A DNA stretch of 64,000 nt from a virus, in the IMG/VR virus record IMGVR_UViG_3300032116_000082, positions 30,272-94,271 of that record; one strand, 5' to 3'. Position 1 is the stretch's first letter, and each line of letters opens with the position of its first letter. Below are positions 11,187 to 63,813 of the stretch, one piece after another. The notes beneath the pieces are model-generated. The model worked only from the letters and a program-made list of their open reading frames with translations, did no database searches and was not told the DNA's origin. The translations under genes and the position numbers were made by a program.

Positions 11187-11221
11187 CTCCCCGTGACTCT
11201 AATAAGTCGAGTCACGGGGAG
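11187..11221. repeat. Perfect 13-bp inverted repeat enclosing the core of promoter A
   Basis: CTCCCCGTGACTC - 9 nt loop - GAGTCACGGGGAG. Confidence 0.9.
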
Positions 11222-11231
11222 CTGAGCGTAG
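11201..11231 (-). promoter_or_regulatory. Putative phage late promoter A
   Basis: Minus strand CTACG-ctcagctccccgtgact(17)-CGACTTATT. Confidence 0.65.
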
Positions 11232-21697: not shown

Positions 21698-21729
21698 AAT
21701 AAGTCGATTCTTTGGCAACCAAAACGAAA
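21698..21729 (-). promoter_or_regulatory. Putative phage late promoter B
   Basis: Minus strand TTTCG-ttttggttgccaaagaat(18)-CGACTTATT. The upstream element overlaps the terminator U-tract. Confidence 0.7.
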
Positions 21730-23146: not shown

Positions 23147-23779
23147 TTACGCCTCGTAACGGAGGCGCGCGTTCAACGTGAATTCAAAAGCTCTGCTTTC
23201 CGGCCCCAGCGGGTAAATCAAGGTGCCAACTGATGTCCGCTGTAACTCCATCAATCCTACTGATGCCTTCGTACCGGCATCATGATCCGCCACCGTGAGA
23301 AACTGACTCTCGTCAAACGCCACGCGGAGCGCATCTACGAGGTACAGCTGTTCACCTTGGTCCCGCGCCAGGCCGTACATATCCAGAGACGCAAACCGCT
23401 CACGCTCCCTCGATCCGAGGCCCAACAGACCGCCGTTCCCCTCATGCTGGACCTGCAAGACAATACTAGGCACCGGCATGTCCTCTGGGGAAAGGACAGC
23501 ACCATCGCTAGTAGGTCGAGTGGGAAACTGCGGAAACGAAAAGTCATCGTTCCGTATCGTCAGGATCCCGCGACTATCGTTATACCGGGAAGCCACTGCC
23601 GAATCCGACAGAAGAATGGCCGCCTGATTCGCCTGGTATTGAGGATAGACCCCGTCCGGCGTCTGGAGGGCATCCAGGGTCGGCCAGTACAGCAAATAGT
23701 CGTGGCTCAACAGCGTACTCGCCAACACCTCGGCGACGCTGTTGGTCAGATTAGTCAGGCTGTACGCTGCGAGCGCCAT
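23147..23779 (-). CDS. Putative tail terminator protein (210 aa)
   Basis: Immediately upstream of the tail tube gene. PVPSIVL...LGLG...SLDMYG pattern. Confidence 0.55.
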   Translation of the reverse strand: MALAAYSLTNLTNSVAEVLASTLLSHDYLLYWPTLDALQTPDGVYPQYQANQAAILLSDSAVASRYNDSRGILTIRNDDFSFPQFPTRPTSDGAVLSPEDMPVPSIVLQVQHEGNGGLLGLGSRERERFASLDMYGLARDQGEQLYLVDALRVAFDESQFLTVADHDAGTKASVGLMELQRTSVGTLIYPLGPESRAFEFTLNARLRYEA

Positions 23780-25703: not shown

Positions 25704-25734
25704 AATAAGTCGGTGTCAGCAGGCAAAAGCGGGA
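25704..25734 (-). promoter_or_regulatory. Putative phage late promoter C
   Basis: Minus strand TCCCG-cttttgcctgctgacac(17)-CGACTTATT. Confidence 0.65.
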
Positions 25735-29180: not shown

Positions 29181-29212
29181 AATGAGTCGTGATCAGCGCC
29201 GCAAAAACGCAG
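29181..29212 (-). promoter_or_regulatory. Putative phage late promoter E
   Basis: Minus strand CTGCG-tttttgcggcgctgatca(18)-CGACTCATT. Heads the protease-decoration-MCP operon. Confidence 0.7.
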
Positions 29213-29230: not shown

Positions 29231-29250
29231 GTTCCACTGTCGCGGGTTAC
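29231..29250 (-). repeat. Direct repeat, copy 1 (GTAACCCGCGACAGTGGAAC)
   Basis: Near-identical to 27366-27386. Confidence 0.6.
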
Positions 29251-30611
29251 AAGAGCTCAGACTGAAATTCACCACGCCGCAGCTCGCGAATTTCGTTGAG
29301 TTGTAGCAGGGTAGGAGTCGATTGTGCTGCGGTAAGGGCGTAACGAATCCGTTCGGCAAACTGCTCACCGACCGCGGACCAGGAGGGTAATGCCTCTGCA
29401 CGGTCTCGACATGCCGACCCGAGATATTCAGTGAGATACGGGTCGCTAGCCAACTCAATGAGGATGTCGGCGGTGGCATTCACGTCCACTATCGCGTGGG
29501 CTGTGTTGATGTATTTCGGCTCAAACCGGTAATCCATCACGGGCAACAACTGCGCAGCCCCGGCCCAAATCTCGCGCGTCGCCGACCAGTCAGGTACAAG
29601 CTGCGTGACCCCGCATAACGCGCCTTCAACAGACGTAAGTCCCCACCCCTCACCACCGCCGGTGTTCAGCTGCACGTCCGCGGTGTTGTACAGCATCCGG
29701 AGCTGCTCATCGGTCAGCTCCGGGTACGTCCAGTGCGTACAAATCACCTTGTCCTGGACGCCGTACAGGCGAGCAAGCTGGGCGAGGTCCCATCCGTCCT
29801 TGTCATTACCACCCATGCAATGCAATACGAGCAGCGCATTCGGTCGAATCGCCGCGAGCTTGGCAAACGCCCGAATCGTGATGTCCTGGCGCTTACGGAA
29901 CTGGTTCGTATTGACATTTAGGACGACAAAGGCATCCTGCGGGAAATTCCATACCGCCCGGCAGTCCGCCTTCGACATCGGATAGAACAGGGAGTGATCG
30001 ATCCCATGCGGAACCGGCGCATACGCCTCAAGATTCTGCCGCTCAGCCAGCCGATCAACGCGCAGATGAAGCTCCATACCATCCTTGGGCAACGTCATCC
30101 ATGCGGCACGTTCGCTGAGATTCACCCCGCGATTGGCATAGGAATCAAGGACCAGGTCCACCAGGTCCCGAGTGCCTATAGCCGTCTCTTTCGCACCAAA
30201 TGTCGTATAGGGAACCGCGCTCGTCAGCGCCGCGGCACCCATGGCATAGCTCCATTTGATATTGGGCGTATCGACGGGATAATACCCAACGGTTGGGAAT
30301 CCACGCGGCACGTAACCCAGGTAGTTGGTCTGATTCCACAGATCCTGGATCATCAGCACTACATCGGGCTTGTCCTGCTTGAGCCAGCTCGGGAGCTGCG
30401 TGACGGCAAGAGGATCCTGCGAGGTCTGCCGTGTGGGCTTCAGGTCGTACGGATATGGTTCGACACGGCTTTTTGATCCAAGTCCGTATCCAAGCCCCCG
30501 ATGGATCACCTCAAAACTACCGGTGGACTGGAGATACGTCCCAATCCCACGAGCAACCCGCTCAAAACCAGTAGGCCACCCGCCATCAGCAACCATCAAA
30601 ACACGAGTCAT
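29247..30611 (-). CDS. Glycosyltransferase, GT4/GT-B fold (454 aa)
   Basis: PTGFERVA, VPHGIDHSLFYP, NTNQFRKRQD, and LYNTADVQLNTGGGEGWGLTSVEGALCG (E-x7-E motif). Confidence 0.92.
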   Translation of the reverse strand: MTRVLMVADGGWPTGFERVARGIGTYLQSTGSFEVIHRGLGYGLGSKSRVEPYPYDLKPTRQTSQDPLAVTQLPSWLKQDKPDVVLMIQDLWNQTNYLGYVPRGFPTVGYYPVDTPNIKWSYAMGAAALTSAVPYTTFGAKETAIGTRDLVDLVLDSYANRGVNLSERAAWMTLPKDGMELHLRVDRLAERQNLEAYAPVPHGIDHSLFYPMSKADCRAVWNFPQDAFVVLNVNTNQFRKRQDITIRAFAKLAAIRPNALLVLHCMGGNDKDGWDLAQLARLYGVQDKVICTHWTYPELTDEQLRMLYNTADVQLNTGGGEGWGLTSVEGALCGVTQLVPDWSATREIWAGAAQLLPVMDYRFEPKYINTAHAIVDVNATADILIELASDPYLTEYLGSACRDRAEALPSWSAVGEQFAERIRYALTAAQSTPTLLQLNEIRELRRGEFQSELL

Positions 30612-32770: not shown

Positions 32771-33073
32771 TCAGAGTCCGAGCTTGAACGGGGTGTCTAT
32801 GCTCGCCTTGCGAATCTGCGCGGCGGCTACACGGGGACAATCGATACGACTGCAGACTGTGCCTTCCTCAACCTCCTGGTCACAGACGGCACACTTGTAG
32901 GTCTGTGCCGCGTGCGACAGCAGGCAGGGGTCCTTCTCACAAGGCGTAGTTGAACCGCAGGCACACACCGCGGCACTCGAGACGGCCTGGCACCCAGGCG
33001 TATCGCACTCGGCGGGCAACGTCTTGCCGCACACCTCGCACGTCTTAGAAAAGTCTGAACCGTGATCTTCCAT
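32771..33073 (-). CDS. Cys-rich metal-binding protein (100 aa)
   Basis: 12 Cys in CxxC, CxC and Cx4C units; AGGAGG RBS. Confidence 0.6.
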   Translation of the reverse strand: MEDHGSDFSKTCEVCGKTLPAECDTPGCQAVSSAAVCACGSTTPCEKDPCLLSHAAQTYKCAVCDQEVEEGTVCSRIDCPRVAAAQIRKASIDTPFKLGL

Positions 33074-35150
33074 GTCCCCCTCCTATGCGGGTAACCACCG
33101 CGCCCAGGGGCGGTGGCGTATCTTCGATCATGCGCTGACGAATCACATGGGCGCGCAACTGCTTGGCGGCGTAAATGAACGCTGCCCACAAGTCCTTCTT
33201 GTTACCGGCCTGTTCCGTATCACCCTTCATGAAGAACTGCCGAAAGTTCTTGGTAGGCTTCTGCTGGAGCGCCCGAAGCTGATGGGCCAGGATCTTTGCC
33301 CCGTTGTAGCCAATGTCAATCTTGACATCAAACGGTCGCTCGGATTCCGGAATATCCTTTGGTAGGTACAGCAGCTTCTGCGTCATCTGTCCGAGCGTAA
33401 ACTCCACCAATCGGTCATTCAGCTGATCGGACGGGAAAATGGCGTCCAGCATGGGCAACGACCGCAGGTCCGAAGCAAACGCCTGGACGCGTTCGTCCGG
33501 ATCAAGCGGATCGTAGATCCGGTACTCTTCCGGTCCGAGATCCTGCTTGTTGATATGTACAAGCTCATCTCGAACGCCCGAGCCACCACCGCGCATATCC
33601 AGGCCGACCGCCCGGCACAACTTCCACGTGTCCGTCTCGTGCGCATCATGGAAGTACACGAGGTTGTACCGATCCTTGAACTCCCGGATCTTGTTCGCAA
33701 CGTCCGCGTGACTCGTCATCCGGTGCTGTTCCGCCCACACCACATTCGACCAGGACGACTTGCCCAAGCCGGTGACCGGGTTGAACTCCCCATCGGCCAG
33801 CGGGCCAACGCGCATAACGACAAATGCGGAAAAGTCCCGACTGCCAGGGGCATAGTCGACACCGAGCACACAGGGATCGGAGCACGACCACATGACCGGC
33901 GGGATAAAATGACTATCTGGATCGGGATACTTGCGCTTCCACTCCGCCCCACAATCCTCATGGGCGAGGATGTACCGGTTGCCCTTGCAAGAGGCCGCAT
34001 CCACTACCTGGTGCGGGTACACATCACCCGTGGACGTATCCACGACATTCCGCTGCTCGGCCAACCAGATGGCCTCTGGGGTTTCCCCGGAGAGCAGCTT
34101 GTCCTCGACGTTACGATTGATTGGGTACGTAGTGATGATTTCGACCGGTACGCCCTGAACCTGAAATCGATTGTTTTCGCCGCGAACCGTGAACGGCAGT
34201 CCGCGGATATCGCGCTTAAACCGGCGAGTGGCATCCGGCCACGTGATCTCCAGTCGCCGACCATCGCGCGTGTCTAGGTGACGGCGGATAATGGTGTCCG
34301 TATAGTCGAAAGACACATACTGCGTCTGCAAAATGCCTTTTCGGCGATACTCATCATACAGCGGCCAGTTGCCCAACTTCGCAGCGTCCAGGGCGGCCAG
34401 GTCGCGAGCCATGCCCTCATACGCTGCCGTCGCCGTTTTCTGGAAGTCGCGCCACCCGTAGTCAATGGTGGTCGTGTAGAAGACGTTGTTAATCGCAGCG
34501 TTATCGCCGCCCGTCTTGAAGTCCCCAAGAACGTTCAAGAAGGAATCCGCGACCTTGGACATGAGTTCGAGGTCGGTGAAATTCGCCTCGTCTACATATA
34601 GGTCGTTGCCGCGAATACCTCGGATCTTTTCAGGGTCGTTGGTCGGAACCGTCAGCAAGTGAGATGCCGATGTAAAATCGATGCGCCAGTAGTTCTGTTG
34701 CCTCAGTACAACCTTTTCGTACACAACCGAGTTCTTGACGAAATCAAGACCAGACTCCTGGTCGAACCAGGCCCCGTTGATCCACTTCTCCGCATCGTCG
34801 TAAAGCAGCTGACCACCGCGAAAACCACCTGCCGAGAGTGTGACTCCTTTCCGCTTGGGAAAGAACAGCGCCCGATAGCTAGCGTACAACACGTCTACGA
34901 CGGCCGACTTGGACGTACCACGACTGCAGACATATACCGTCGTTGGTGCGCCGAGGTGCGCAGCATAGAGCATGAGCCGCTGATGCGGAGGAATGAAGAT
35001 CCCCGTCAAGGATCGCAAGGCGATATCCGGCCAGTGACGCCACCGCATAAGCGGCTTGTACAGACGATCGGCCTCGATCGCCTGCTCTGCCGTTTGCGGC
35101 GTCCTCAGTGTGTCCGCCAAGGACCTCGTCCAGGGTCTAATCGTGAGCAA
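33045..35150 (-). CDS. terL: Terminase large subunit (701 aa)
   Basis: PPHQ adenine-binding motif, Walker A CSRGTSKS, IRGIRGNDLYVDEA (Walker B), nuclease motifs LGVDYA...DFSA, GLDMRGGG and KKDLWAA. Confidence 0.92.
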   Translation of the reverse strand: MLTIRPWTRSLADTLRTPQTAEQAIEADRLYKPLMRWRHWPDIALRSLTGIFIPPHQRLMLYAAHLGAPTTVYVCSRGTSKSAVVDVLYASYRALFFPKRKGVTLSAGGFRGGQLLYDDAEKWINGAWFDQESGLDFVKNSVVYEKVVLRQQNYWRIDFTSASHLLTVPTNDPEKIRGIRGNDLYVDEANFTDLELMSKVADSFLNVLGDFKTGGDNAAINNVFYTTTIDYGWRDFQKTATAAYEGMARDLAALDAAKLGNWPLYDEYRRKGILQTQYVSFDYTDTIIRRHLDTRDGRRLEITWPDATRRFKRDIRGLPFTVRGENNRFQVQGVPVEIITTYPINRNVEDKLLSGETPEAIWLAEQRNVVDTSTGDVYPHQVVDAASCKGNRYILAHEDCGAEWKRKYPDPDSHFIPPVMWSCSDPCVLGVDYAPGSRDFSAFVVMRVGPLADGEFNPVTGLGKSSWSNVVWAEQHRMTSHADVANKIREFKDRYNLVYFHDAHETDTWKLCRAVGLDMRGGGSGVRDELVHINKQDLGPEEYRIYDPLDPDERVQAFASDLRSLPMLDAIFPSDQLNDRLVEFTLGQMTQKLLYLPKDIPESERPFDVKIDIGYNGAKILAHQLRALQQKPTKNFRQFFMKGDTEQAGNKKDLWAAFIYAAKQLRAHVIRQRMIEDTPPPLGAVVTRIGGGHGRSRFRLF

Positions 35151-36192
35151 TCGCGTCGTCCTCTACCGGCTCTTGTACCTGCGTATCGTCGATCGGTACT
35201 TCCTTAAGGAATCCCTTCTTTGCCAACCACGACTCAATTTCGTCGATCTGGAGCCCAGCATAATTCCTGGTGCCACATTTCGCACACTCACAGGTCCGAC
35301 ACCGGGTCGCACCAAACAGCCCGACGTCGTCGAGCTGATAACCGCCCATGTTTGACCGCGGGCTCGGCGTGTGGTACATCTGAAACAGGACCAGCAGCTC
35401 CTCGGCAAGCCAGCGCTCACGGAGCTCAATCGCATTGGTCTCCTCCAGGCGCCGTACCGCCTCCCCGATAGTCCCGCCTTCCTTCTCCTTCTGCTGCTTA
35501 GCCAGCTGGTCCGGGTGGATGTTCAGCGCCTTTTCCAGCTCAACGATCTGCTTCGTCAGCTGCTGGATCTGAAACTCCTCGGTCTTACCCTTCTGGTCCT
35601 TGGCCTGCCGGAAGCGGATGCGGTCAAGAAGCAGCGTGAGATCCAGGAGCATGTCCAGCTTAGACTCCGACGCGACGGAGCGAAGCTGCGGGAAGTCCTT
35701 GAGGTAGGCGTCCTTCAGCCGCTCACGTCGCTCGAGCTCGGCGGAGGTGAAGAACACCAGCGGGTCGTCACCATACGTTGCTTCCCCCGCCACCTTCTTC
35801 CGATATTCATCCGGAAGATTCTTGTCTGTGGCCTGCGCCTCCTTCTTGGCTTTAGCTACTTCCTTTTCACGAGTCTTCCTGGCTCTCCGCTTCTCATCGG
35901 CCGTGACAAGGGGCGCCATCGCATCTAGGTCAAACCGACACGCAGAACGTACACGGGCCGTGAGCGTTGAAGTCGCCATGGCAAACCACGGCGATTTGCC
36001 ATCCGAAGGCAGCACACCCTTCAAACAACAATCCAAATAGTACTTGGCCGCTGCAACCGGCTCCTTCGTATTGCGCGTCTGGGCAAACCAATCGGCGATT
36101 TTTTCGATCGCCTCCTGATATCGTTCCGGCGCAATGTCCGAACCGACCTCATAGATCAAAGGCTCCCGCAGCGTTTTGCCGCCACGTGGCAT
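35137..36192 (-). CDS. Putative terminase small subunit/packaging protein (351 aa) with a C-terminal Cys cluster
   Basis: Immediately upstream of and overlapping terL. Helical core LEKALNIHPDQ; CRTCECAKC. Confidence 0.5.
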   Translation of the reverse strand: MPRGGKTLREPLIYEVGSDIAPERYQEAIEKIADWFAQTRNTKEPVAAAKYYLDCCLKGVLPSDGKSPWFAMATSTLTARVRSACRFDLDAMAPLVTADEKRRARKTREKEVAKAKKEAQATDKNLPDEYRKKVAGEATYGDDPLVFFTSAELERRERLKDAYLKDFPQLRSVASESKLDMLLDLTLLLDRIRFRQAKDQKGKTEEFQIQQLTKQIVELEKALNIHPDQLAKQQKEKEGGTIGEAVRRLEETNAIELRERWLAEELLVLFQMYHTPSPRSNMGGYQLDDVGLFGATRCRTCECAKCGTRNYAGLQIDEIESWLAKKGFLKEVPIDDTQVQEPVEDDAIAHD

Positions 36193-36584
36193 TACTCCTC
36201 CTCCTCTTCGAGATTCCGCTTGAAGTGCTTTGACACATCGTTGCGACTGCTTTGGAGCGATACCGGCGGCATAACCAGGTCAAAATCGCCAGCGACGTCG
36301 CGGACCAACTGCTCCCCCCGCTCGAGTCTGGCGTCGAGAGATTCAGTGTTGTAGATCCGCTCGCGCCGTAAATAGTCAATCATTCGGAACTTGAGCGCTT
36401 GGCGAATGTAAGCATCCGGATTGTCCTTGGCCCGACCAGGATTACAGTTCCAGAGGGCAATCAGCCCCTCCTGGTACAGATCCTCGGCCAAGGTGTCGTT
36501 TGTCTGGGCCAACTTCCAAGATATGGCACGAATTACCAGATCGTACTTTGGCAGGAAGTAGGTTTCGAACTCCTCATTGGTCAT
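36192..36584 (-). CDS. Stand-alone sigma70 region 2 protein (130 aa), putative subunit of a split sigma factor
   Basis: YDLVIRAISWKL...AEDLYQEGLIALW...AYIRQALKFRMIDYLRRE, then ESLD and an acidic tail. No region 4. GAGGGAG RBS before ATG 36584. Confidence 0.88.
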   Translation of the reverse strand: MTNEEFETYFLPKYDLVIRAISWKLAQTNDTLAEDLYQEGLIALWNCNPGRAKDNPDAYIRQALKFRMIDYLRRERIYNTESLDARLERGEQLVRDVAGDFDLVMPPVSLQSSRNDVSKHFKRNLEEEEE

Positions 36585-36616
36585 ACCAGCTCCCTCGGAC
36601 AACAGTTAAGCCCGAT

Positions 36617-36648
36617 ACTAGGTCGTACTTTTGTGATTTCAGACGAAA
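36617..36648 (-). promoter_or_regulatory. Putative phage late promoter H (variant), upstream of the sigma region 2-TerS-TerL-portal operon
   Basis: Minus strand TTTCG-tctgaaatcacaaaagta(18)-CGACCTAGT. Confidence 0.6.
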
Positions 36649-36686
36649 ATCGGGGGCTGGGGAGCTGTTTTCGTCGATTCTACGCG

Positions 36687-36947
36687 TTATTTGACTGATT
36701 CTGAGAGTCTTCGAATGGCGGCGGTGCGGATATATCGTATGGCAGCCTCGGACAGCGGCTTTCCCCGCATCTTTTGTCCTACATACCAGCCAATCGCGGC
36801 ATAGGTCGGCGGCCACGAAGCATTTGGCCACGGCCAATCCGGCGGATGTCGAAGCCCAAAGACCAATTCGACGACCAGGCGATGTTCGTCGGACAACGTG
36901 ATCAACAGCTGCTCGACCGCAATGCGGTTGATTAGATCGTCTTCCAT
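36687..36947 (-). CDS. Stand-alone sigma70 region 4 protein (86 aa), putative subunit of a split sigma factor
   Basis: LITLSDEHRLVVELVFGL...TYAAIG...LSEAAIRYIRTAAIRRL aligns with RpoD region 4 (LTAREAKVLRMRFGI...TLEEVG...VTRERIRQIEAKALRKL). TGATG-coupled to ruvC. Confidence 0.85.
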   Translation of the reverse strand: MEDDLINRIAVEQLLITLSDEHRLVVELVFGLRHPPDWPWPNASWPPTYAAIGWYVGQKMRGKPLSEAAIRYIRTAAIRRLSESVK

Positions 36948-37600
36948 CAGGCCGCCTCATCTACAGTGTCGGCCTGACGTTCACGCATCAGATGCCAGGC
37001 CCAATTCAGCGCAATCGCATCGGCTTCATCATCCTGCGTAATCTTCTTGGTTGTATCGTTCGCCTTGAACTTCAGATTCAGTCCAAACTGCTGGTTGACC
37101 ATCAACAGAACGATCTTCTTGTTGGCCTCATGGTCGGTTCCCTTCTTCGCCCCAATCGCCCGCTTAACCAGATGGGCCGCGACAGCCTCGTCCTTGTCAA
37201 ACTCCCGCCCATAATGCTCGAAGTGGGCCGATTCGATGATGCCTACATATCGTGACAGAATGCCATAGGTGTTCTTCATCCGGCCCTGATACGGCGCCTC
37301 ATAGATTACGACATGCGGCGCCCATTCCTGGAGCATGCCCAGCAACCACGCGCGGAAGTTCATCAAACGCTCGCCGTGACCTGTTCCCGTCTGGCGATAA
37401 CACCCGTGTACCAGCAGGGCACCATTATCGAAAATGGACCAGCCGCACGCACGAGAGCTAGAGTCAAGGGCGAGCACGCGAGTCACGCCGCCTACCGGCG
37501 CGACGGGCTGCGCCTTTCGCCGAGCGGGACCACGCGTCCGGTGCTTCGTTGGTCTGGGGGTGCGCTGCTTTCGCGAACGACCGAGCTTAGCGCGCGGCAC
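36947..37600 (-). CDS. ruvC: RuvC-like Holliday junction resolvase (217 aa)
   Basis: RVLALDSSSRACGWS, VIYEAPY, and DDEADAIAL catalytic acidic residues. Confidence 0.88.
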   Translation of the reverse strand: MPRAKLGRSRKQRTPRPTKHRTRGPARRKAQPVAPVGGVTRVLALDSSSRACGWSIFDNGALLVHGCYRQTGTGHGERLMNFRAWLLGMLQEWAPHVVIYEAPYQGRMKNTYGILSRYVGIIESAHFEHYGREFDKDEAVAAHLVKRAIGAKKGTDHEANKKIVLLMVNQQFGLNLKFKANDTTKKITQDDEADAIALNWAWHLMRERQADTVDEAA

Positions 37601-38237
37601 GATCTACTCCGACAGGGAGCATCTTTCGGAGCAGAGACACCTTCTCCGACGTGGTGACGGCCAAGACGCTGGGCTTACGCCCTAAATGGCCTGCCAGATA
37701 CAAATGGGCATCAACCTGCCATTGAAGCGTGTCCGCGTAGCCAGGATCGTTATAGATGACACCGTTAAACAAACTCAGCGGGCACATATCGATATTCGTC
37801 TCTGATTCGTGCGCGCGCTGTTCGGAGGTCATGTTGTTGGCTACGTGGCGCTGCGGCGCGTCCACCCGATAGACCAGGCCGCCGTGATCGCGAATAAACC
37901 GGATCTCATTGATAAAACGGACATCGGTGATTACGAACTTGTCGAAGCCCCACGACTCTTCAATGCGGCGAATCCGCGCAAACAGGGCGCGCGCCCACAC
38001 GTCTTCTCCATGAACGTGTCTGCCGCGCTCCGTGCCTTCCTGCTGAAGCCACGTCCTGATCGCAACCGGCTTGGGTCCAAGGAACACCTCCTCGTAACTC
38101 GCCACTCCGGTTGCGATCGCTCGAATCTTGATGTCTTCGGCTAGGCTGACATCCAAGTAGCCGAGTGGCCTCAAATAGCGATCTGCGATGGTGTTCTTGC
38201 CGACCCCAGCACGTCCGGCAAGAGCCACCACCTTCAT
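37587..38237 (-). CDS. Deoxynucleoside monophosphate kinase (216 aa)
   Basis: LAGRAGVGKNTIA P-loop, LAEDIK, RTWLQQEGTERGR, VITDVRFINE, HESE. Confidence 0.9.
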   Translation of the reverse strand: MKVVALAGRAGVGKNTIADRYLRPLGYLDVSLAEDIKIRAIATGVASYEEVFLGPKPVAIRTWLQQEGTERGRHVHGEDVWARALFARIRRIEESWGFDKFVITDVRFINEIRFIRDHGGLVYRVDAPQRHVANNMTSEQRAHESETNIDMCPLSLFNGVIYNDPGYADTLQWQVDAHLYLAGHLGRKPSVLAVTTSEKVSLLRKMLPVGVDRAAR

Positions 38238-40326: not shown

Positions 40327-42623
40327 GCCGCCATTTCCTTGGTCCAATACGGCACTACACCCTCAGAACCCTCTGGAAACTCTGCCGCAACCGGCACATC
40401 GGGGCAGTAGAAGCGTCCTGCCTGTTCCATAAGCTCTCTCATCAACGGCGCGAACTCCTGGGCGATGGAATCATGTACCTCACACACAATCTCGTCATGA
40501 ACGAGATTCACCACGAAGGCCTTGTCCTGCCAGCCGCGATCGTCAATCAGTCGTTGAATTAAACACGCCGCGGCTTTCGTCATAGTCGCGGATCCGCCTT
40601 GAATCGGGGCGTTGGATCCTTCGGTATAGGTGTTTTTAGAGTCGGGCGGGAAGAATCTGATCCGACCGCAGGGCGCTCGGACGTAGGTCACCATGTCCCC
40701 AGCGACCTCATCCCAGATTTTCGGCGCGTGTGGATTATTGGGATCCGCACGCTGAGAGCAGAGGTCCTGGTACTCCAAGACCTTCTCGTGGACCTCAAAG
40801 AACCGGCGATGTAGCCCCTGGGCATATTCGAAGCTGGGGGCCTCAACCTGACCGGTCATGATGGCATCGGCCAGTCCTAGGGTTAGCTGATCGCGGAGCT
40901 TTCTGGCACCGGACCGATAGGCCATCGCCAGCACGACGGCCTTGAAAATCTTCCGCTCGAGCTTGCCTTCCGGCGTGTGCTTGTCTGGCCTGTGGCCCAG
41001 CATTGCCTCGGCGACTGACAGATACAGGTCGTCATTCCGTTCATAGGTTCCGATATACACCGGATCCTTCGACACCTGGGCCAGAAGCCGAGGCTCCTGC
41101 TGCGAGTAGTCTGCAATAACAAAGGAATACTCGTCGGCAGGGATGAAACAATGCCGGTACCGAGCGTCTCCGGGAACGTTCTGCAGGTTGGGAGTAGTGC
41201 TCAAACGCCCGGTATTCGTTACCGCCTGATGCACTTCGGTATGTACACGGCCAGTATCCGTTCGGACGTTCTTCAGCAGCCAGTCATTACCAAAGGTGTC
41301 ACAGCGAATATCGTACTTGGAATACTCCATCAACAAATCAACAATATCCGAAGGCAGCTGCCCACGGCACTTCCGGAGCGTCAAGGTGTTTTTGTCCGAT
41401 TCGGTTAGCAGGCAATACTGATACTCGGATACCACCCAGTCCGGAATGTCACGAACGTCGACCGATCGCCCGCGCTCCTCCTGCTGCTGCCGCCAGTCAC
41501 GACCGAATAGCTGCTTGAGCTCGTTGAGCCGGTCCACAGACGTCACTACCTCGTAACTCCATTGACGACCCTCACAGATCTTCTTGATCGCCCACTTGAC
41601 CTGTTCCGAACTGGAGTAGTTCAGCGGCTTGTTAAGCTTCGGGTAGATTGGTCTCTGCTTGAACGTATCGGTGTCGAACAGGTCTGGCTGCATGGTGTAC
41701 TGCCGAACCAGATCGTCCAGGGCCGCCTGTGCCTCAGCCCGCTTGGCCAGCGCCTCCTGCCACAGGGCTCGCCACTGGGACCGATCCACCCGCATCCCGT
41801 GGTGCTCAAGCTCACCTAGAACCGGGATCAGCTCCATCTCGACCTTAATGATGCCCCGCAGCCCACGTTCCTCGATCAAAGTGCGTTGCTTCTTCGCAAT
41901 GACGAACGGGTAAATGACGTCGCTCGCGGCATACACGATCTGGCGCAACGTATGCTGTCCAACGGGAGTCTTGAAGAACCCGGTTCGGAGGGACTCTTCC
42001 TTGTCGATTTCCACCTTGGAGTACCGCTCCATGAGGGCAGCCATGGAGCACAACTTGTAGGCACTACGATCCTCGTTCTTTCCGCGAGCCTCCCCCTTCG
42101 GCGATAGCAGACCAGCGCGGATGATCATCTCGGCAATCTGCGTGTCGGCGAGATTACGGCATCGGACGTCGTACTGTGCGCGGAGAAACCGGTATTCAAA
42201 CCGGACGTTCTGACCCAGCTTGGTCACCTGGCGATTCTCGAGTACGTCGAATACCGGCCGCAGCTGTTCTTTGGAGAACGCACGGACGTCTATCACCACG
42301 GCGTTGGGAAACCGGGGGTCGGCCACCTCCATATTGCCAAGCTGCAGGGTGGCGATCTTCGAGTCGAACGGGTTCAGACCAGACGTCTCAAGGTCCAGGC
42401 CGACCATATTGAGTGTCGCAAGCCACTCCACAACCAGGGGCAATTCCTGCGGCTGTGTCACATACCAATATCGTACGAGCTTACTGGTGTCTTCACTCAG
42501 TGGCAGGTCGATGGTGAATTGCAGCGGACGACCGTCCTGCGGCATATCCAAAACCTGGAGCTTATGCCCGTACCGGATTAGCTCTTCACGCTGCAGGCGC
42601 AACGGCTCAGTCAACGAAAGCAT
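40323..42623 (-). CDS. polA: Family A DNA polymerase with 3'-5' exonuclease (766 aa)
   Basis: ExoI LDLETSGL, ExoIII YAASD, TNTGRLS...PNLQNVP, motif A ADYSQQEPR, motif B RKIFKAVVLAMAY, NAPIQGGSA, motif C VHDEIVCE. Confidence 0.96.
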   Translation of the reverse strand: MLSLTEPLRLQREELIRYGHKLQVLDMPQDGRPLQFTIDLPLSEDTSKLVRYWYVTQPQELPLVVEWLATLNMVGLDLETSGLNPFDSKIATLQLGNMEVADPRFPNAVVIDVRAFSKEQLRPVFDVLENRQVTKLGQNVRFEYRFLRAQYDVRCRNLADTQIAEMIIRAGLLSPKGEARGKNEDRSAYKLCSMAALMERYSKVEIDKEESLRTGFFKTPVGQHTLRQIVYAASDVIYPFVIAKKQRTLIEERGLRGIIKVEMELIPVLGELEHHGMRVDRSQWRALWQEALAKRAEAQAALDDLVRQYTMQPDLFDTDTFKQRPIYPKLNKPLNYSSSEQVKWAIKKICEGRQWSYEVVTSVDRLNELKQLFGRDWRQQQEERGRSVDVRDIPDWVVSEYQYCLLTESDKNTLTLRKCRGQLPSDIVDLLMEYSKYDIRCDTFGNDWLLKNVRTDTGRVHTEVHQAVTNTGRLSTTPNLQNVPGDARYRHCFIPADEYSFVIADYSQQEPRLLAQVSKDPVYIGTYERNDDLYLSVAEAMLGHRPDKHTPEGKLERKIFKAVVLAMAYRSGARKLRDQLTLGLADAIMTGQVEAPSFEYAQGLHRRFFEVHEKVLEYQDLCSQRADPNNPHAPKIWDEVAGDMVTYVRAPCGRIRFFPPDSKNTYTEGSNAPIQGGSATMTKAAACLIQRLIDDRGWQDKAFVVNLVHDEIVCEVHDSIAQEFAPLMRELMEQAGRFYCPDVPVAAEFPEGSEGVVPYWTKEMAA

Positions 42624-44640
42624 TGGGATCGAGTGAGAAGATATCTTTGGCGACCGTCTGCTCGGTCATACTTGGAGCGGGAACAAATTTCGAAACTGTT
42701 TGATGCAGTAAGAGCTCGACGGCGACACCCGCTTCACCCTCACGCTGCTTGACGATCGTGATCTTCCGCTTGGAAATGGCACCTGGCGTACGTTCACCGG
42801 TCAGAATCATGGCTACGTCGGCGTCGGCCTCGATGCGACCGGTGCCCTTAAACCAGTTGATCTGCGGCTCGTCGTCCGCCTCAACCTTCCGCTGCAGTTG
42901 TGAAAACACCACGACAGGCTGCCTCAGAACCTTGGCCATGTACTTAAACTCCATGGACAACCGCGACAACTTCTCGTATTCCGACTGGTGCCCGTTCACA
43001 TCGATGGAGCCGAACTGCAGGTAATCCATAAACACGACCATCGGTTTGCCGATGGACAACTTCTCCCGCAGAATGGTGTCTTCGAGCAGGTTGAAAATGA
43101 GATCCGGTTGGCTAGCGGAGTAATGCAGGTAAATCGGCAGCTGATATAGTCGTTCAGCCGCCAGCGTGACCTCACGCTCCTCTTCGCTGTTGAGCGGATA
43201 GGGGCTGCCGTTCCAAAGACGCTCGCCCCGTATGGCCCGTGAATCCACACCAGACATGCGGGCCAACATGCGCTCCTCAAGCCCTTCCTGGCCGGTCTCG
43301 GCGCTGAATCCCAACACCGGAATGCCTCGCTCGGCCATGGACACCATGGCATCAACCATGAGCGCCGTCTTTCCAATGCTTGGAAGAGCGCCTACGATCG
43401 TGAGCTCCTTCGGGCGAAGGCGTGTATACTGATCAAGACCGGCCGTGCCCCACGTCGCACCTGTCGGAACCTCCCCTCGATTGCGACGCCGCATACGGTC
43501 CAAGGAACGCTTAAAATCCGACCGAAGCATTGGTTCGGTGGTTTCCTTGACCAGCGTGGCTATCGGCGCATCACCGACGTGGTACGGCGCCCCGCCCTTG
43601 CATCCCTTACAGGCCAGATGCGGGAAATGCTCGCGGATGTAGCGGCAACCCACCGGCGGATGACGAAGTGCCTGAGTGTACTTGGCGTCCGTCTCTGACT
43701 CGGAGTATCCCTTATAGTCGCGGCTGATCAGATGGGCCGCCTCACGACCGTTGGCGAAGCAGGTCAGCTGCTGAATAGCGGCGTACCACTGCGGCTCCGG
43801 TAGCCGTTCGCGGTTCTCGAACGCATGGGCCATAAACTGGCACCCATAGTCCGAGATCAGCTTTAGGACCCCATTTAGGGGTTTTTCCGGCCGTCCGCCT
43901 GGATGAGTCTCTCCATAGGGGGCAGGCTCATACATCTCGGTCCTGACACTCGGGACAGGCGCAGCTTCCACAGGAGCATTATCCGCCAGCTCCTGAATGA
44001 CGTATCTGTTGTTGTACCGGACAATCTTGACAAACTCCGCAGGACCAACCGGATCCAGCGTGGTGGTATTCAAGAACACACTGGCGCCGCCGGGCACTCC
44101 AGGACCCAATTGACTCGACCAACCAGCCGGTGCCTCCGCACCGAAGAACGGCAGCGCAATCAGGTTGCCGTAGGGTCTAGACTCGCTGACCGTGGTCTGG
44201 ACCGGGTACAGGCGATCGAAGCTGCTGGCGTCAACCAGAAGCGGCTTTAGGGCTTTTCGAACGTCAGCCGCAGGGACCGGAGATTCGAAAAAGCCCCAGA
44301 CATGGCAACCTTCACCGGATCGGGACTTCTCCAAGTAGACTTGAAGTCCGGCCTCCTGGAATACCTCGAGCTGGTTCAGCGCCTGGTTTAGGACGGAGGT
44401 AGCATCGTCCTCTGCGTCGAAATCCAACGCGAACCAGCAGACCGTGGAATCGGCGAGAAGCTGGTACTGACCAAGCAGGATGCGCCCTGCCAGGTGATCC
44501 TGCAGCAGATCGTCCGTAAGTGGTTCTTTTACAAGGGCATATCCGACTTTTCCAGGCTGTCCATCCTTGACAAACGCCTTGGCGTAGACGTCGCCGCGAC
44601 CACGAAATAGTCGCGTTGTTGCTTCCAGAAGGGTGTTCAC
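42607..44640 (-). CDS. AEP primase-DnaB (SF4) helicase fusion (677 aa)
   Basis: AEP motifs ALDFD, EKSRSGEGCHVW, GNLIALP. Central 4-Cys domain. DnaB motifs GALPSIGKT, FSAET, FMDYLQ, FSQLQR, IEADADV, KQREG. Confidence 0.9.
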   Translation of the reverse strand: MNTLLEATTRLFRGRGDVYAKAFVKDGQPGKVGYALVKEPLTDDLLQDHLAGRILLGQYQLLADSTVCWFALDFDAEDDATSVLNQALNQLEVFQEAGLQVYLEKSRSGEGCHVWGFFESPVPAADVRKALKPLLVDASSFDRLYPVQTTVSESRPYGNLIALPFFGAEAPAGWSSQLGPGVPGGASVFLNTTTLDPVGPAEFVKIVRYNNRYVIQELADNAPVEAAPVPSVRTEMYEPAPYGETHPGGRPEKPLNGVLKLISDYGCQFMAHAFENRERLPEPQWYAAIQQLTCFANGREAAHLISRDYKGYSESETDAKYTQALRHPPVGCRYIREHFPHLACKGCKGGAPYHVGDAPIATLVKETTEPMLRSDFKRSLDRMRRRNRGEVPTGATWGTAGLDQYTRLRPKELTIVGALPSIGKTALMVDAMVSMAERGIPVLGFSAETGQEGLEERMLARMSGVDSRAIRGERLWNGSPYPLNSEEEREVTLAAERLYQLPIYLHYSASQPDLIFNLLEDTILREKLSIGKPMVVFMDYLQFGSIDVNGHQSEYEKLSRLSMEFKYMAKVLRQPVVVFSQLQRKVEADDEPQINWFKGTGRIEADADVAMILTGERTPGAISKRKITIVKQREGEAGVAVELLLHQTVSKFVPAPSMTEQTVAKDIFSLDPNAFVD

Positions 44641-45116: not shown

Positions 45117-45767
45117 CTACGTTGCGTCAAATAGAATAGCCGTTCGATTACCGTTAGCATCTACCGTTGCAACAATGCGGTTCTTGTCATCCGCAACACT
45201 TCGGAAGGTAATCGTCGTGCCTTCCGCGCCGGACACCTTACCGACTAGGGCAGACAGAATCAGCCGCATCGCTCCTGTCAGATCCAAGCCCGAATCCACA
45301 GCTTTGGAATGCACCGCGTCTGCAATTTCGGACGGTGACGCCTGATTTACCGCGTAGGACAAGTTGGACACCGTCGACGTAACCCCGCCACCTGGCAGAA
45401 TCAGAAACGGACTCTGCCCCTCCTGGTCATTATAAAGTGTCCCCGTGACAGACACCTCGTGGTCAACAACCACCCGCCAGCCATTCATCAAAAAATAGAT
45501 ATCTCCGGCAAGCAAGCCCCCGCCCACCGGATCCCCACCAATGACGCGAACCGCGGGTAAGAACTTGGCGTTGTCACGAACCTGAACCCATTCCTTCCAG
45601 GCCGAGTAGATATCGCGACGCACATCAATATTCGTCTCCAACGGATTAACGATGATCTGACGATTAAGGCCATCAAACGTACACCGCTGCTCACCCCACA
45701 CCCCAGCACTAGGAGTGTAGGGTCCCCAGAACTCATGAAAGGCGTAGTTCTGGATCAGCGTCGTCAC
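45117..45767 (-). CDS. Putative virion structural protein (216 aa)
   Basis: GTGA-coupled start. Shares the YSxWKExW...NGW motif with the 532-aa protein. C-terminal LVGKVSG...DKNRIVATVDANGNRT. Confidence 0.65.
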   Translation of the reverse strand: MTTLIQNYAFHEFWGPYTPSAGVWGEQRCTFDGLNRQIIVNPLETNIDVRRDIYSAWKEWVQVRDNAKFLPAVRVIGGDPVGGGLLAGDIYFLMNGWRVVVDHEVSVTGTLYNDQEGQSPFLILPGGGVTSTVSNLSYAVNQASPSEIADAVHSKAVDSGLDLTGAMRLILSALVGKVSGAEGTTITFRSVADDKNRIVATVDANGNRTAILFDAT

Positions 45768-47674
45768 TGCGCAATCTCCTTCCACGCAGTCTTAATCACG
45801 AGGTGCACCGGATTGGTACCGAAGTACTTCTTACAGATGATCGACCACAAGAAGCGAGAGCCAAACATGCCCCGAATGGTGCCACCACTGGTGTACGTGC
45901 CGAAGCCGGTCGTATTCAGCGGCGTCGTCATCGCCGCGTTCGTATACAACTCGGCGGTGGTGAGACCCGTGATCTTCATGTAGTAGGTCTGCCCGTTCAC
46001 CTCGGTCATGCCACCAACACCCGCGAACGTTACGGCCGTCCCATCCCGTAGCATATGCGGCATATCGACGGTCAGCACTGCCGAGGACGCGTTGGTGATA
46101 CCGGCGACCACACATTGCCGCGTACCACCGTTCTCCGCGTAATTCTTAATCGAAGCTTGGAGGTTATTTGCCAGCGATGTAAGATCCTGCGCCGAATGCC
46201 CATTCGCCAGCGTCTTGACCGTAGGCCGACCGCCACCGTAGAACGTCGCATCCGTGTCCATAGACACAGTCGGCGAATCGGTTGCCTGCCAGTTGAGCCC
46301 GGCCACAATCGGCTCCGCAATAACCTCGACCTCCACCAAAGCGGGCGCTCCCGTGACCGTATCAAACGCCAACACCTCGAGCTGGTTCGGAAAGTACAGC
46401 GTCCGATTGGTGCGCCCGTTGTCAAGCAGCTCCACCGGTGCCAGGGTTCCAATATACTCGTAGCTGTTATTTGCAGTGATAGTGTAATTCATACTCTGCA
46501 ACCCAGAGCGCCCAGATCGCAGCGGATCAAGGGCTGTCTCCGTCCAAACGGAGGAACAGAAGACCCGCATTTCACTGCTACTTCCAGTCGACGCGAAGTT
46601 CCGCTGGGCAAAGCAAATGGGCAGCGAGCCGGTTGCACAGAAAGGATACGGCGCGGTATTTCCATGGTGATACTCATGACAGACCACGCGCTGCCCCTCG
46701 TGGTACACACCGAACCGAACGCGTCCCGCCCCCAGCCACTGCATGTCGATCCAGTACAGATTGTCCTTCGTCACATCAATCAACATCTGCGACGGTCCCG
46801 TCCCGTCGATACGATCCCTGTTCCAGTCTTCCTGCCAGATGTAGGTGTCCACCACCGACCCAGTCACATCGGACTTGATGACGAAGCCCAGCTTCACCTG
46901 CCCCGGATTCGCCGGGTCCTCCCGATGGACGAAGTGGACCCCGTTCTGAAAGTCGAACATGCCCCAGGAACGGCCGAGTCCCACTTTTCCGCTATCGCCC
47001 AACGCCAAGGTCGCCATAAAGAGCTGGCTCGACCCCGGCGTATAATGGTGGTACGTATTCGACGTATGCGCGACGATGTCACCGCTCACGGTCGTCGAGC
47101 TAAGCAGCGCCGCCCGCTTGTTCTGGTCCCAAGCGAGCGTCGCCCCGCCTACCAGGCGAGTACTGAAGGCATCGGGCATGGTACCGTTGGCAAAGACGTA
47201 CTCGCCGAGGATGGTACCCTGACTGACACGGAGCTTGCCAAACGCATCCAGCTGCGGCTGCCCTTCCGCGAAGGTGATCTGGGCCGACCCAAACTTGTCG
47301 ACCCACATCCCATATTCCGGATTATCGTAGCTCGTGATATGATTCGTGTTGACCCAGACGTCCCGCACTTCCAACGTTGGGTGGACCTGGGCAATGGTTA
47401 CCCCATCGAGGGTGATATTCTCACCCGGCTGCGGCGTCAGATTGTTGAACGTCGCACTCCGCGAGTAATGGACCTCAATATACCCGGTAGTGCTGGTTAG
47501 CTCGTACACCCCGTGCACGTGCATCGAGAACCCGGAGGTTCCCAGATGCACGCGGGAGCCCAAGGCAAACGTTCCAGTCCGATTTGTATACGGAACCGAC
47601 GCCGTGTGCTTTAGATTGATGCGCGGTCCGGTGGATGCTGGAGGAATCCGCGTGAAGTTACGTTCGCCTGGCAT
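45764..47674 (-). CDS. Putative virion appendage protein with a lectin-like core and a C-terminal E1-FCCH-like domain (636 aa)
   Basis: DAFGKLRVS and YWIDMQWLGAGRVRFG; C-terminal GITNASSAVLT...HMLRDG..V.FAGVGGMTEVNG...TTGFGTYTSGG. Confidence 0.65.
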   Translation of the reverse strand: MPGERNFTRIPPASTGPRINLKHTASVPYTNRTGTFALGSRVHLGTSGFSMHVHGVYELTSTTGYIEVHYSRSATFNNLTPQPGENITLDGVTIAQVHPTLEVRDVWVNTNHITSYDNPEYGMWVDKFGSAQITFAEGQPQLDAFGKLRVSQGTILGEYVFANGTMPDAFSTRLVGGATLAWDQNKRAALLSSTTVSGDIVAHTSNTYHHYTPGSSQLFMATLALGDSGKVGLGRSWGMFDFQNGVHFVHREDPANPGQVKLGFVIKSDVTGSVVDTYIWQEDWNRDRIDGTGPSQMLIDVTKDNLYWIDMQWLGAGRVRFGVYHEGQRVVCHEYHHGNTAPYPFCATGSLPICFAQRNFASTGSSSEMRVFCSSVWTETALDPLRSGRSGLQSMNYTITANNSYEYIGTLAPVELLDNGRTNRTLYFPNQLEVLAFDTVTGAPALVEVEVIAEPIVAGLNWQATDSPTVSMDTDATFYGGGRPTVKTLANGHSAQDLTSLANNLQASIKNYAENGGTRQCVVAGITNASSAVLTVDMPHMLRDGTAVTFAGVGGMTEVNGQTYYMKITGLTTAELYTNAAMTTPLNTTGFGTYTSGGTIRGMFGSRFLWSIICKKYFGTNPVHLVIKTAWKEIAQ

Positions 47675-47686
47675 GAACTAGGCTCC

Positions 47687-49285
47687 TTACACGGGGTTGC
47701 TGTAGTTACGTTCCTGCGCAGGCGCGAGAAGAATAGACTGTCCTGCCGTACGCGTGATCACATGATCAACGGAAGCAAATTGACCGCCGGAGAGGCCGAT
47801 CCCGATGACCTTGACAGTCACGTTTCCTGCCGGAGACACCGTACGACCACCCTGCGTGTTTGAGTCGTAGTTGAACGTCCAGTTGATGGGCGAGCCGGTA
47901 TACGTGCCACTGATCGGGCTGCCATCCTTGTCGTTGACCAGCAGGGCGTTGGCCGTGCCGTAATTGCTGCTGTTCGGCGTCGTCGTGAAGAACATGCGGT
48001 AGATGAAATCGCCGCTCCCGGCAAACGAGCCAAAGTTGATCGTTCCAGCCGACACGAACGGATAGCGCCGAACCACCGCGTTAAAGTCATAGAAATCAAC
48101 GGCATTCAGGAAGTTGGCGCTCAGACCGCTAATGAACACGCCATTCGAGCCGACGAGTGTGTCACCAACGAACTGCAGAAGGGCGTCCGCCGTCTTACCC
48201 GTAACACTGCCAGCACCCGAATCGATGTCGCTATTCTGACGCAGCAGATACTGGATCTTCTCATAGATCTGCTGAGTCGTAGCAGCGCCACTACCATCGG
48301 TAATCACATACCGGTATGGCTCATCATTGGAGTCACCATCAACATCGAACAGCTGATCCGTGCCAAAATACTCCACAGAAATGGTGCTGTGAATCGACCC
48401 AACCGTTCCACCTGAGGTATACGAACCAGGATCTGACGCGATATTGATCGTGAAGGTGTCGGTGTCAACTGCCGTCACAACACCACCAACATTATACCCC
48501 GAGGGCGTCACACCCGTAATCGTGGCATACTGACCCGTAGAGAAGCCGTGCGCCGCCGTCGTATTGATCGTAGCGACACCGCTGGACCAGGAAGCCGAGG
48601 TCACCGCGACATTCTTGGTGATGAACGCGTCGCTGGAGCTAATCTTGAGGTCCGTGGCGTTCGACAGCGGGAACCGGTAAGTAATATACGTGAGCGTCGA
48701 GGCACCGATCGCGGTGTTGTTCGAGCTGGCGTATAGCTTCCCCTGCTCACGGCAGAACAGCTTGAAGCTATCCCCATCCGTAAAGTTGAAGTTGCCATTG
48801 GACGAATCGCCGAAAATCTGTACGGCCTCGTTTACCGGACCGGGATAGGCAAAGTTCGTCGCCGCACCCGTACCAAACTGGTAATAGGGCTGGTCCACGG
48901 CGCCAAGCGATCCAAGGGACACGACGCCAAGATACTGCCGCTCAACGGCACCTGCCGCCGATCGCTCAGCCCAACCGGCCGTACGAATCAGCTTACGGGT
49001 TGCATCATTCGCAGGCTTCCAGCCATTGATGAACTCGAACGATTCCGGCGTAATCGCTTCCATGGGGAACGGAAACTTGATGTACGTCGTATTAGACTTC
49101 CACTCCTCCTTCAGCCACGAATACAGCGTCTGGCCGGTAACCCCACCAGTCGCCCCCTCGTCAGCGACAACGCCGCTTGCATTGGTCGAGGCGTTATATG
49201 GGCGAATTTCGATGGTCTTTGCTGTGGTATTGACAACAACGTCAGTACCGTCGACCAACTGATCCGGATCAGAAATGATAGGCAT
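47687..49285 (-). CDS. Putative virion structural protein with an FCCH-like insert (532 aa)
   Basis: AAGGAG RBS; T/S/G-rich beta composition; TTAAHGFSTGQYATITGVTPSGYN insert. Confidence 0.7.
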   Translation of the reverse strand: MPIISDPDQLVDGTDVVVNTTAKTIEIRPYNASTNASGVVADEGATGGVTGQTLYSWLKEEWKSNTTYIKFPFPMEAITPESFEFINGWKPANDATRKLIRTAGWAERSAAGAVERQYLGVVSLGSLGAVDQPYYQFGTGAATNFAYPGPVNEAVQIFGDSSNGNFNFTDGDSFKLFCREQGKLYASSNNTAIGASTLTYITYRFPLSNATDLKISSSDAFITKNVAVTSASWSSGVATINTTAAHGFSTGQYATITGVTPSGYNVGGVVTAVDTDTFTINIASDPGSYTSGGTVGSIHSTISVEYFGTDQLFDVDGDSNDEPYRYVITDGSGAATTQQIYEKIQYLLRQNSDIDSGAGSVTGKTADALLQFVGDTLVGSNGVFISGLSANFLNAVDFYDFNAVVRRYPFVSAGTINFGSFAGSGDFIYRMFFTTTPNSSNYGTANALLVNDKDGSPISGTYTGSPINWTFNYDSNTQGGRTVSPAGNVTVKVIGIGLSGGQFASVDHVITRTAGQSILLAPAQERNYSNPV

Positions 49286-53169: not shown

Positions 53170-53201
53170 AATAAGTCGCTGTAACGCTGGGAAATACGAA
53201 G
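53170..53201 (-). promoter_or_regulatory. Putative phage late promoter D
   Basis: Minus strand CTTCG-tatttcccagcgttacag(18)-CGACTTATT. Confidence 0.7.
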
Positions 53202-63781: not shown

Positions 63782-63813
63782 TGTAAGTCGAAGATTTACA
63801 CGGGAATGCGCAG
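63782..63813 (-). promoter_or_regulatory. Putative phage late promoter F
   Basis: Minus strand CTGCG-cattcccgtgtaaatctt(18)-CGACTTACA, upstream of the fibre gene. Confidence 0.65.

Follow-up and report, generated by a model that had tools for sequence, protein, structure and literature searches.

Sigma factors whose functions are divided between two polypeptides have so far been described in only a handful of cases: SigO-RsoA of Bacillus subtilis, a pair encoded by the conjugative element Tn916 (a 2026 preprint) and the late factors of phages T4 and SPO1. The two phages each have a pair of small late proteins (gp55 and gp33 in T4, gp34 and gp33 in SPO1), which sit on the host RNA polymerase (RNAP) at the sites of sigma2 and of the flap/sigma4. 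T4 gp33, which depends on the sliding clamp, reads no -35 element, and a -10-like box is all that T4 late promoters contain. In the sigO-rsoA pair of B. subtilis the gene that bears region 4 comes first, and both polypeptides (also called YvrI and YvrHa) are required at the target promoter, which makes the system a natural AND gate. The Tn916 genes orf7 and orf8 encode Sig7-Sig8, a sigma factor with two subunits, both parts of which associate with RNAP; sig7, which is region-4-like, precedes the region-2 gene sig8, and their first expression comes by read-through and is followed by positive feedback (bioRxiv 10.64898/2026.10.01.756105). Sig8 was not predicted as a sigma factor and could be linked to RsoA by a language-model tool only (bioRxiv 10.64898/2026.10.01.756105). 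Phage factors and split factors are both listed as uncaptured in the reclassification of the extracytoplasmic function (ECF) sigma factors. Here we describe two adjacent genes, orfA and orfB, of a tailed freshwater phage, found in a window of 64,000 nt (positions 30,272 to 94,271) of the 94-kb IMG/VR virus record IMGVR_UViG_3300032116_000082, which is estimated to be ~58% complete. We put at roughly 0.6 the probability that they encode a two-subunit ECF-like sigma factor for the late genes of this phage. Coordinates below are positions in the window unless "genome" is stated.

Both genes, like all genes around them, lie on the minus strand. The product of orfA (36687..36947, 86 aa) has the fold of sigma region 4 (sigma4) only, and that of orfB (36192..36584; 130 aa from an ATG, or 136 aa from an upstream TTG) consists of an ECF-type sigma2 followed by a short stub and a tail. 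The 102-nt spacer from the orfA stop to the orfB ATG (36585..36686) is in the same frame as both genes and holds three further stops, so that four in-frame stops, that of orfA included, separate the two. The ATG of orfA overlaps the TGA of a RuvC-like resolvase gene by one base, and a Shine-Dalgarno (SD) sequence, GAGGGAG, can be read directly before orfB (36590..36596). The two open reading frames (ORFs), the gap with its stops and the intact translation signals that had been reported in a first-pass annotation of this DNA were thus all recovered on recounting. Contigs of four other freshwater runs span the locus with zero indels and one substitution; because independent contigs show no indels, the split is real DNA and not an assembly artefact. 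At position 36518 (orfB codon 23) the window has TGG (Trp), as opposed to CGG (Arg) in three independent freshwater runs; Arg is nearly invariant at this position in the orfB family, so that either a rare variant or an error is present in the window record.

In layout the locus resembles Tn916, in that a small region-4-like gene comes first and a region-2 gene second, on a mobile element. The first-pass annotation had stressed the reversed domain order. Region 4 does come first, but the order is less unusual than claimed and not new in itself, because sig7 precedes sig8 in Tn916. The differences are that Tn916 is an element of Firmicutes, an integrative and conjugative element, whereas orfA and orfB reside in a freshwater tailed phage, and that the Tn916 promoter lies upstream of both genes, whereas the phage has a promoter-like site between them. 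As in SigO-RsoA, sigma4 and sigma2 functions are placed on two polypeptides from adjacent genes, and the general arrangement of split sigmas, a region-4 and a region-2 polypeptide from neighbouring co-oriented genes, is present. However, SigO (~22.5 kDa) comprises more than region 4 and RsoA is small (~9 kDa), whereas in the phage the sigma4 is minimal and the sigma2 is the larger protein, with a stub; SigO-RsoA serves a cellular stress regulon, whereas a late switch is proposed for the phage pair, and the two are likened by architecture, not by sequence. Unlike T4 gp33, the orfA protein has the full sigma4 helix-turn-helix (HTH) fold, and the phage motif is bipartite; PHROGs gave no match of either phage protein to the gp55 or gp33 families. 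A canonical ECF sigma factor (group 4) is one chain of sigma2, linker and sigma4. The orfA-orfB pair does not belong there as it stands, with its two ORFs, four in-frame stops and region 4 first, and where the two are fused in relatives the chain is permuted (sigma4, ~25-47 aa, sigma2).

The orfB product is a clear region 2. Its score with the Pfam Sigma70_r2 model (PF04542) is 34.6 bits (E 1.7e-8), where 24 bits are needed to pass; positions 16-69 of the 71-position profile align with residues 31-82 when the 136-aa protein is counted and 25-76 in the 130-aa protein (36357..36512, minus strand). When the genome was searched in six frames, this model matched the orfB site only. The best NCBIfam matches are ECF models, in region 2 only, and PHROGs gave a weak match to phrog_1740, "RNA polymerase sigma factor" (E 0.046). 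Like canonical ECF factors of group 4, the protein has the sigma2 signature DLYQEG...W and an Arg/Lys-rich region 2.4 followed by ESLD, and a CG-containing -10-like box is found at the locus. The conserved linker stub after region 2.4 reads ESLD..G.Q; behind it comes a variable tail, predicted to be disordered (residues 109-130 have a predicted local distance difference test score, pLDDT, below 50 in the AlphaFold2 (AF2) model), that ends in EEEEE. The description of this protein as region 2 only, with SLD and an acidic tail, was therefore accurate. We found 50 homologues of 105-180 aa, all with PF04542 and no other domain and with regions 2.2-2.4 as the most conserved part; a search for longer homologues found none, and the family profile matched no PDB sequence at E up to 0.01. 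In contrast to Sig8, orfB encodes a plain PF04542 ECF-type sigma2, for which the general Pfam, NCBIfam and PHROG scans gave generic sigma or ECF models only.

The assignment of orfA to region 4 was made from its fold and not from a hidden Markov model (HMM). The AF2 model, built from a 20-sequence alignment, has a pLDDT of 94 and four helices (residues 2-15, 20-29, 49-60 and 67-85). VIA-align superposed it on sigma region 4 with Z 10.2 and a root-mean-square deviation of 1.7 Å over 70 of the 86 residues; by the tool's own caveat, for helical domains Z below ~13 is inconclusive alone and Z near 10 can reflect a common arrangement of helices. The superposition spans residues 344-413 of Thermus thermophilus sigmaA and 534-605 of Escherichia coli sigma70, and the matched segment is the complete region 4 in the sigma factors of T. 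thermophilus, E. coli, Mycobacterium tuberculosis and Staphylococcus aureus. Nearly all Foldseek matches are sigma region 4 as well, and no other fold family appears among the 50 structural matches listed. The modelled orfA protein is thus a complete sigma region 4, a four-helix domain with the helices of region 4.1 and the HTH of region 4.2. Profile comparison gave faint traces in the same direction, a hit of the orfA profile to T. maritima sigmaA region 4 (1tty, E 1.6) and a PF08281 match in a fused relative, P0124 (E 0.01). The first-pass annotation, which had called this ORF region 4 only and proposed to check both halves with HMMs, stands on the fold; by HMM, Sigma70_r2 was found in orfB, but neither PF04545 nor PF08281 had a match anywhere in the 94-kb record.

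Two local features of orfA had been pointed out as well. The Trp/Pro-rich loop is present as the main insertion (residues 30-48, between helices 2 and 3), but the supposed insert of about 8 aa in the HTH turn is not, the turn (61-66) being only a few residues longer than usual; the ~16 residues that do not align to sigma4 fall mostly in the loop, the remainder in the turn. The recognition helix, with a conserved PLSEAAIRY, is the most conserved part of the family. The 29 close homologues are all 85-108 aa long, and a profile search of 1.84 billion representative proteins yielded 70 clusters of relatives at 50% identity, nearly all of 66-150 aa; the wide alignment was too divergent for a search of loci.

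The pairing of the two genes could be followed through 15 distinct related loci (the window, three IMG/VR records and metagenome contigs L007-L020). A region-4 gene followed by a region-2 gene on the same strand is found in 13 of them, with spacers of 11-296 nt, and the region-2 gene has a clear SD sequence (GGAG or GGGAG type, within the 20 nt before the start) in 12 of these 13, contig L019 being without one. Both loci that depart from this pattern are on short contigs: L012 stops 331 nt past orfA, inside an ORF with a Cys-rich start that resembles P0079, and in L013 an unrelated ORF of at least 180 aa (L013:1383-1939), directly behind a CGACTTATT site, follows orfA in the place expected for a region-2 gene. 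In L012:1389-1719 and P0079 we seemingly have a region-2 protein with a Cys-rich, zinc-ribbon-like N-terminal extension. Close homologues of orfA and of orfB occur on contigs whose lengths match between the two lists. A prediction of the orfA-orfB complex scored 0.00 and carries no weight either way.

The position of the pair is conserved along with the pairing. In the window, transcription runs through genes for a family A DNA polymerase, a primase-helicase, an HNH-like ORF, a deoxynucleoside monophosphate kinase and the RuvC-like resolvase (36947..37600, minus strand; phrog_159, E 7e-16), which is the last recognisable DNA-metabolism gene and is syntenic in all related loci. It then passes through orfA, the spacer and orfB to a 351-aa protein without family match in the position of a small terminase (p351, 35137-36192, minus strand), a terminase-large-subunit-like gene with weak PHROG TerL matches (TerL, 33045-35150, minus strand) and the head, tail and fibre genes. 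The orfB stop overlaps the start of the p351 gene, and orfB, p351 and TerL form the start of the late/packaging block. The pair therefore marks the exact point at which the DNA-metabolism genes give way to the terminase and structural genes. The block of RuvC, orfA, orfB, p351 and TerL, followed by a portal-like gene, is kept although TerL is only 46-51% identical, and orfA and orfB themselves fall to 40-60% identity across the lineage in which it is kept; the order orfB, p351, TerL, portal-like gene is retained in L005, L007, L010, L011, L015, L016 and L018.

Both genes are under purifying selection: the ratio of nonsynonymous to synonymous substitution rates (dN/dS) against L001 takes values of 0.098 (orfA) and 0.078 (orfB), much as in neighbouring genes, with dS saturated. 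The first-pass annotation had suggested measuring dN/dS and searching phage databases for adjacent region-4 and region-2 genes, and both results bear it out. They also speak to the notion that the two ORFs are decaying, functionless remnants of a rearranged sigma gene. That orfA fails the region-4 HMMs would fit such decay, but dN/dS of ~0.1 for both genes, retention of the pair at the above TerL divergence, the 70 clusters of orfA relatives and the near-identical, indel-free sequences in independent freshwater metagenomes make it hardly credible.

Natural fusions supply genomic evidence, of the classical kind, for joint action of the two halves. Four protein clusters fuse both families (P0097, 254 aa; P0104, 235 aa; P0124, 244 aa; P0134, 168 aa), and family-specific HMMs place an orfA-like part N-terminally and an orfB-like Sigma70_r2 part C-terminally, 25-47 residues apart. 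The fusion linker corresponds to the spacer of the split forms plus the old start Met of region 2, which is still visible. P0134 is represented by three variants of ~90% identity, all fused, on at least eight contigs, and a second member of P0124 comes from a different source; scans of IMG/VR with P0124, P0134 and P0097 gave no match. The existence of fusions of exactly these two families supports a joint function, and the predicted chains show that a sigma factor with sigma4 before sigma2 is viable; a literature search for permuted sigma factors found none. Had the relatives been fused and the split arrangement unique or degraded, the two-gene reading would have suffered, but fusions are rare and the split form is kept and intact. 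The fusions probably arose from loci in which the two genes share a frame and are separated by a single stop.

Such loci, together with the fused proteins themselves, also raise the possibility that the working protein is one chain, running from region 4 to region 2, which recoding or read-through of stop codons would produce. Six loci (L001, L005, L007-L009 and L011) have the genes in the same frame with a single stop between them. Nevertheless, the window has four in-frame stops and L010 has two, the genes are in different frames at seven loci, the stops are a mixture of TAA, TAG and TGA, nearly every region-2 gene has its own SD sequence and start, and the other window genes are intact under translation table 11. 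Because of these multiple stops, differing frames, mixed stop codons and separate start signals, programmed read-through is very improbable, and the earlier statement that this is neither a frameshifted gene nor read-through was correct.

Between orfA and orfB lies a promoter-like motif of the form YTNCG-N17/18-CGACTTATT, which ends 32 nt before the orfB ATG. In the window it reads TTTCG-N18-CGACCTAGT (36617..36648, minus strand), with a -35-like box at 36644-36648 and a -10-like box at 36617-36625; an inverted repeat of 8 bp, GACGAAAA/TTTTCGTC (36668-36675 and 36642-36649), has the former in its 3' arm. The spacers of the window, L001 and L005 have diverged except for TT(T/G)CG-N18-CGACCTA(G/A)T, at the same spacing, and the SD sequence. 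The motif is also found in or at the orfA-orfB junction in L010, L012, L013, L014, L015 and L016, where orfA is ~40-50% identical, and thus in eight related loci in all. A strict pattern, YYNCG-N17/18-CGACYYANT, occurs seven times in the 94-kb genome, as against 0.6 times expected from Markov-1 simulated sequences, with one further variant before a fibre gene. Every site has the orientation of the coding strand and is followed, after 14-66 nt, by an ORF with an SD sequence; the sites precede the fibre gene, an appendage block, orfB and the terminase, and the protease/capsid, neck and tail genes. The further copies, from the -35 to the -10 box and all on the minus strand, are at 63782-63813, 53170-53201, 29181-29212, 25704-25734, 23510-23541, 21698-21729 and 11201-11231; the genes behind them are the fibre, appendage block, protease/capsid, neck, tube, tail chaperone and Dit-like genes.

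The full motif recurs at orthologous positions in the related phage records G001-G003, and 26 unique sites give the consensus YTNCGttt ... CGACTTATTa. In G001 the -10-like box alone occurs ten times in the forward and once in the reverse orientation, compared with four and two for controls. The 11-mer ACGACCTARTA with two mismatches was not enriched, enrichment being seen with the bipartite pattern only, and a scan for sigma70-type promoters and terminators over 35900-37800 returned no promoter-like site and nothing in the spacer. The motif between the genes implies that, in the clade of the window and several others, a transcription unit closes with orfA and the late one opens with orfB, so that the two halves are apparently expressed from separate units. 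Where clades lack the motif and have spacers of 11-40 nt, orfA and orfB are probably co-transcribed.

The spacer contains another element. The tract CAGCTCCCC (36658-36666) is complementary to the orfB SD region GGGAGCTGG (36588-36596), and the two are paired in the minimum-energy fold. Among the relatives, L001 keeps GCTCCCC of this tract and L005 does not. The pairing may sequester the SD sequence; the fold energy of the spacer RNA is no better than that of shuffles (z -1.5 to +0.2).

There is about an even chance, or one slightly better, that the motif is read by the split pair itself. Even if the two proteins are a genuine two-subunit sigma factor, the late motif could instead be read by the host sigma or by a further sigma-like protein of the phage, in which case orfB would merely be one of the late genes and the pair would have a different, smaller or later regulon. 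A 244-aa sigma-like ORF indeed occurs at genome C1:11438-12172 (plus strand; L047:439-1173), ~18.1-18.8 kb before the start of the window. Its ESM-Atlas neighbours are phage sigma70 clusters (0.95-0.96), the gene is conserved in the related phages G001 and G002, and its C-terminal helix RAIRCI (family consensus RAIRYI) resembles AAIRYI of orfA, the match extending over 12 columns only. In addition, if the pair reads the motif, orfB must be present before its own promoter fires. However, the 244-aa protein has no Pfam or NCBIfam match, hhalign of its family against both halves was not significant, and the motif scan found no site before its gene. The motif stands directly before orfB in the eight related loci, as is typical where ECF-type sigmas regulate themselves and as in Tn916 Psig7. 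We therefore consider it rather unlikely, although a serious contender, that the motif belongs to another factor; the 244-aa protein may be a second, full-length sigma in an SPO1-like cascade. Doubt over the reader of the motif does not touch our conclusion, by which orfA and orfB encode the halves of a single factor. A search of the genome for a T7-like RNAP (PF00940) gave no match and is uninformative, as the control was also without a match.

The apparent location of the two genes in different transcription units bears on yet another possibility, namely that the proteins act independently. The orfB product would then be a sigma2-only factor like T4 gp55, and that of orfA a free HTH regulator, a competitor for the beta flap (host shut-off) or a gp33-like co-activator. 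T4 offers a precedent for this, as gp55 works without region 4 while gp33 occupies the flap. The fusions of exactly these two families, the conserved -35-like box at fixed spacing in the motif and the recognition helix as the most conserved part of orfA all speak against independent action, which we regard as improbable.

On the reading that we prefer, a two-subunit factor for the late genes, and by analogy to ECF holoenzymes and the split sigmas already characterised, the sigma2 encoded by orfB would engage the host RNAP at its beta-prime clamp helices and open and read the CGAC-type -10-like box, and the orfA protein, as a sigma4 on its own, would dock on the tip of the beta flap and read the YTNCG -35-like box. 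The pair would in this way direct the polymerase to YTNCG-N17/18-CGACTTATT promoters of the packaging, head, tail and fibre operons. The first orfB protein could be supplied by read-through from the DNA-metabolism operon, after which the pair would drive orfB and the late genes, forming a switch with positive feedback and two inputs. The two-subunit factor that the first-pass annotation had proposed is well founded in its domain halves, separate translation, purifying selection, adjacency and fusions, whereas its late switch is an inference.

Several points weigh against the proposed late factor. RNAP binding, the need for both halves and the role of the pair as reader of the motif are all inferred. 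The orfA protein is without a match to the region-4 HMMs PF04545 and PF08281 (Pfam, E up to 1) and to any PHROG or NCBIfam model, and its Z of ~10 lies in the range in which helical arrangements can coincide. The AF2 model of the orfB protein is of low confidence (pLDDT 69, predicted template modelling score 0.48), and Foldseek with this model returned noise only. The fused forms are known here from protein sequences, and the virus record is only ~58% complete. The presence of the 244-aa sigma-like ORF also counts on this side.

The split-sigma design as such was known already, from SigO-RsoA, Tn916 Sig7-Sig8 and, more loosely, T4 gp55/gp33 and SPO1 gp34/gp33. What appears to be new is a lineage of phages in which a minimal sigma4 of 86 aa is paired with a sigma2 of the ordinary ECF type, together with a conserved candidate cognate promoter between their genes and permuted fusions. 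We suggest, tentatively, that these proteins could represent a distinct phage-borne class of sigma70 factors with sigma4 before sigma2, usually in two genes and occasionally in one permuted chain. With sigma4 placed first, the sigma2-sigma4 linker cannot take its usual path through the RNA exit channel, and its role there would perhaps be taken by the sigma2 stub and acidic tail. The halves would come from different temporal units around their cognate promoter, and the resulting AND gate with positive feedback would time the late switch; this extended proposal is plausible but, in our view, less likely than not. The permuted fusions constitute unusually direct genomic evidence for the joint action of two sigma halves. 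The system would provide a compact, probably orthogonal two-input transcription switch and a test case for how much of the sigma2-sigma4 linker initiation really needs.

The phage is widespread, as near-identical DNA is present in freshwater metagenomes of many studies from 2017 to 2025. Searches for cultured relatives in 50,697 phage records, with TerL and orfB (tblastn), gave no match, and scans of GTDB genomes found no prophage copy. The single match in GTDB, in a metagenome-assembled genome of Omnitrophota, was rejected as an ordinary full-length ECF sigma factor that aligned via region 2.2 alone.

A few other genes of the window deserve mention. Four giant ORFs, all on the minus strand, encode proteins of 2929 (54936-63725), 2659 (11233-19212), 1988 (4428-10394) and more than 1475 aa (1-4425). 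The 2929-aa protein is fibre-like, with a C-terminal Peptidase_S74 intramolecular chaperone domain, and the other three are essentially without family matches. In the primase-helicase (42607-44640, minus strand), a DnaB-like helicase at the C-terminus is joined to an AEP domain of "TOTE conflict system" type (PF22548, E 1e-33). A GT1-family glycosyltransferase gene (29247-30611, minus strand) is located among the head genes, between the portal-like and the protease/capsid genes. Finally, two adjoining proteins (45764-47674 and 47687-49285, minus strand) contain domains that match ubiquitin-E1 FCCH (PF16190), with a score of 35.9 bits, above the cut-off, in the 636-aa protein of this pair.

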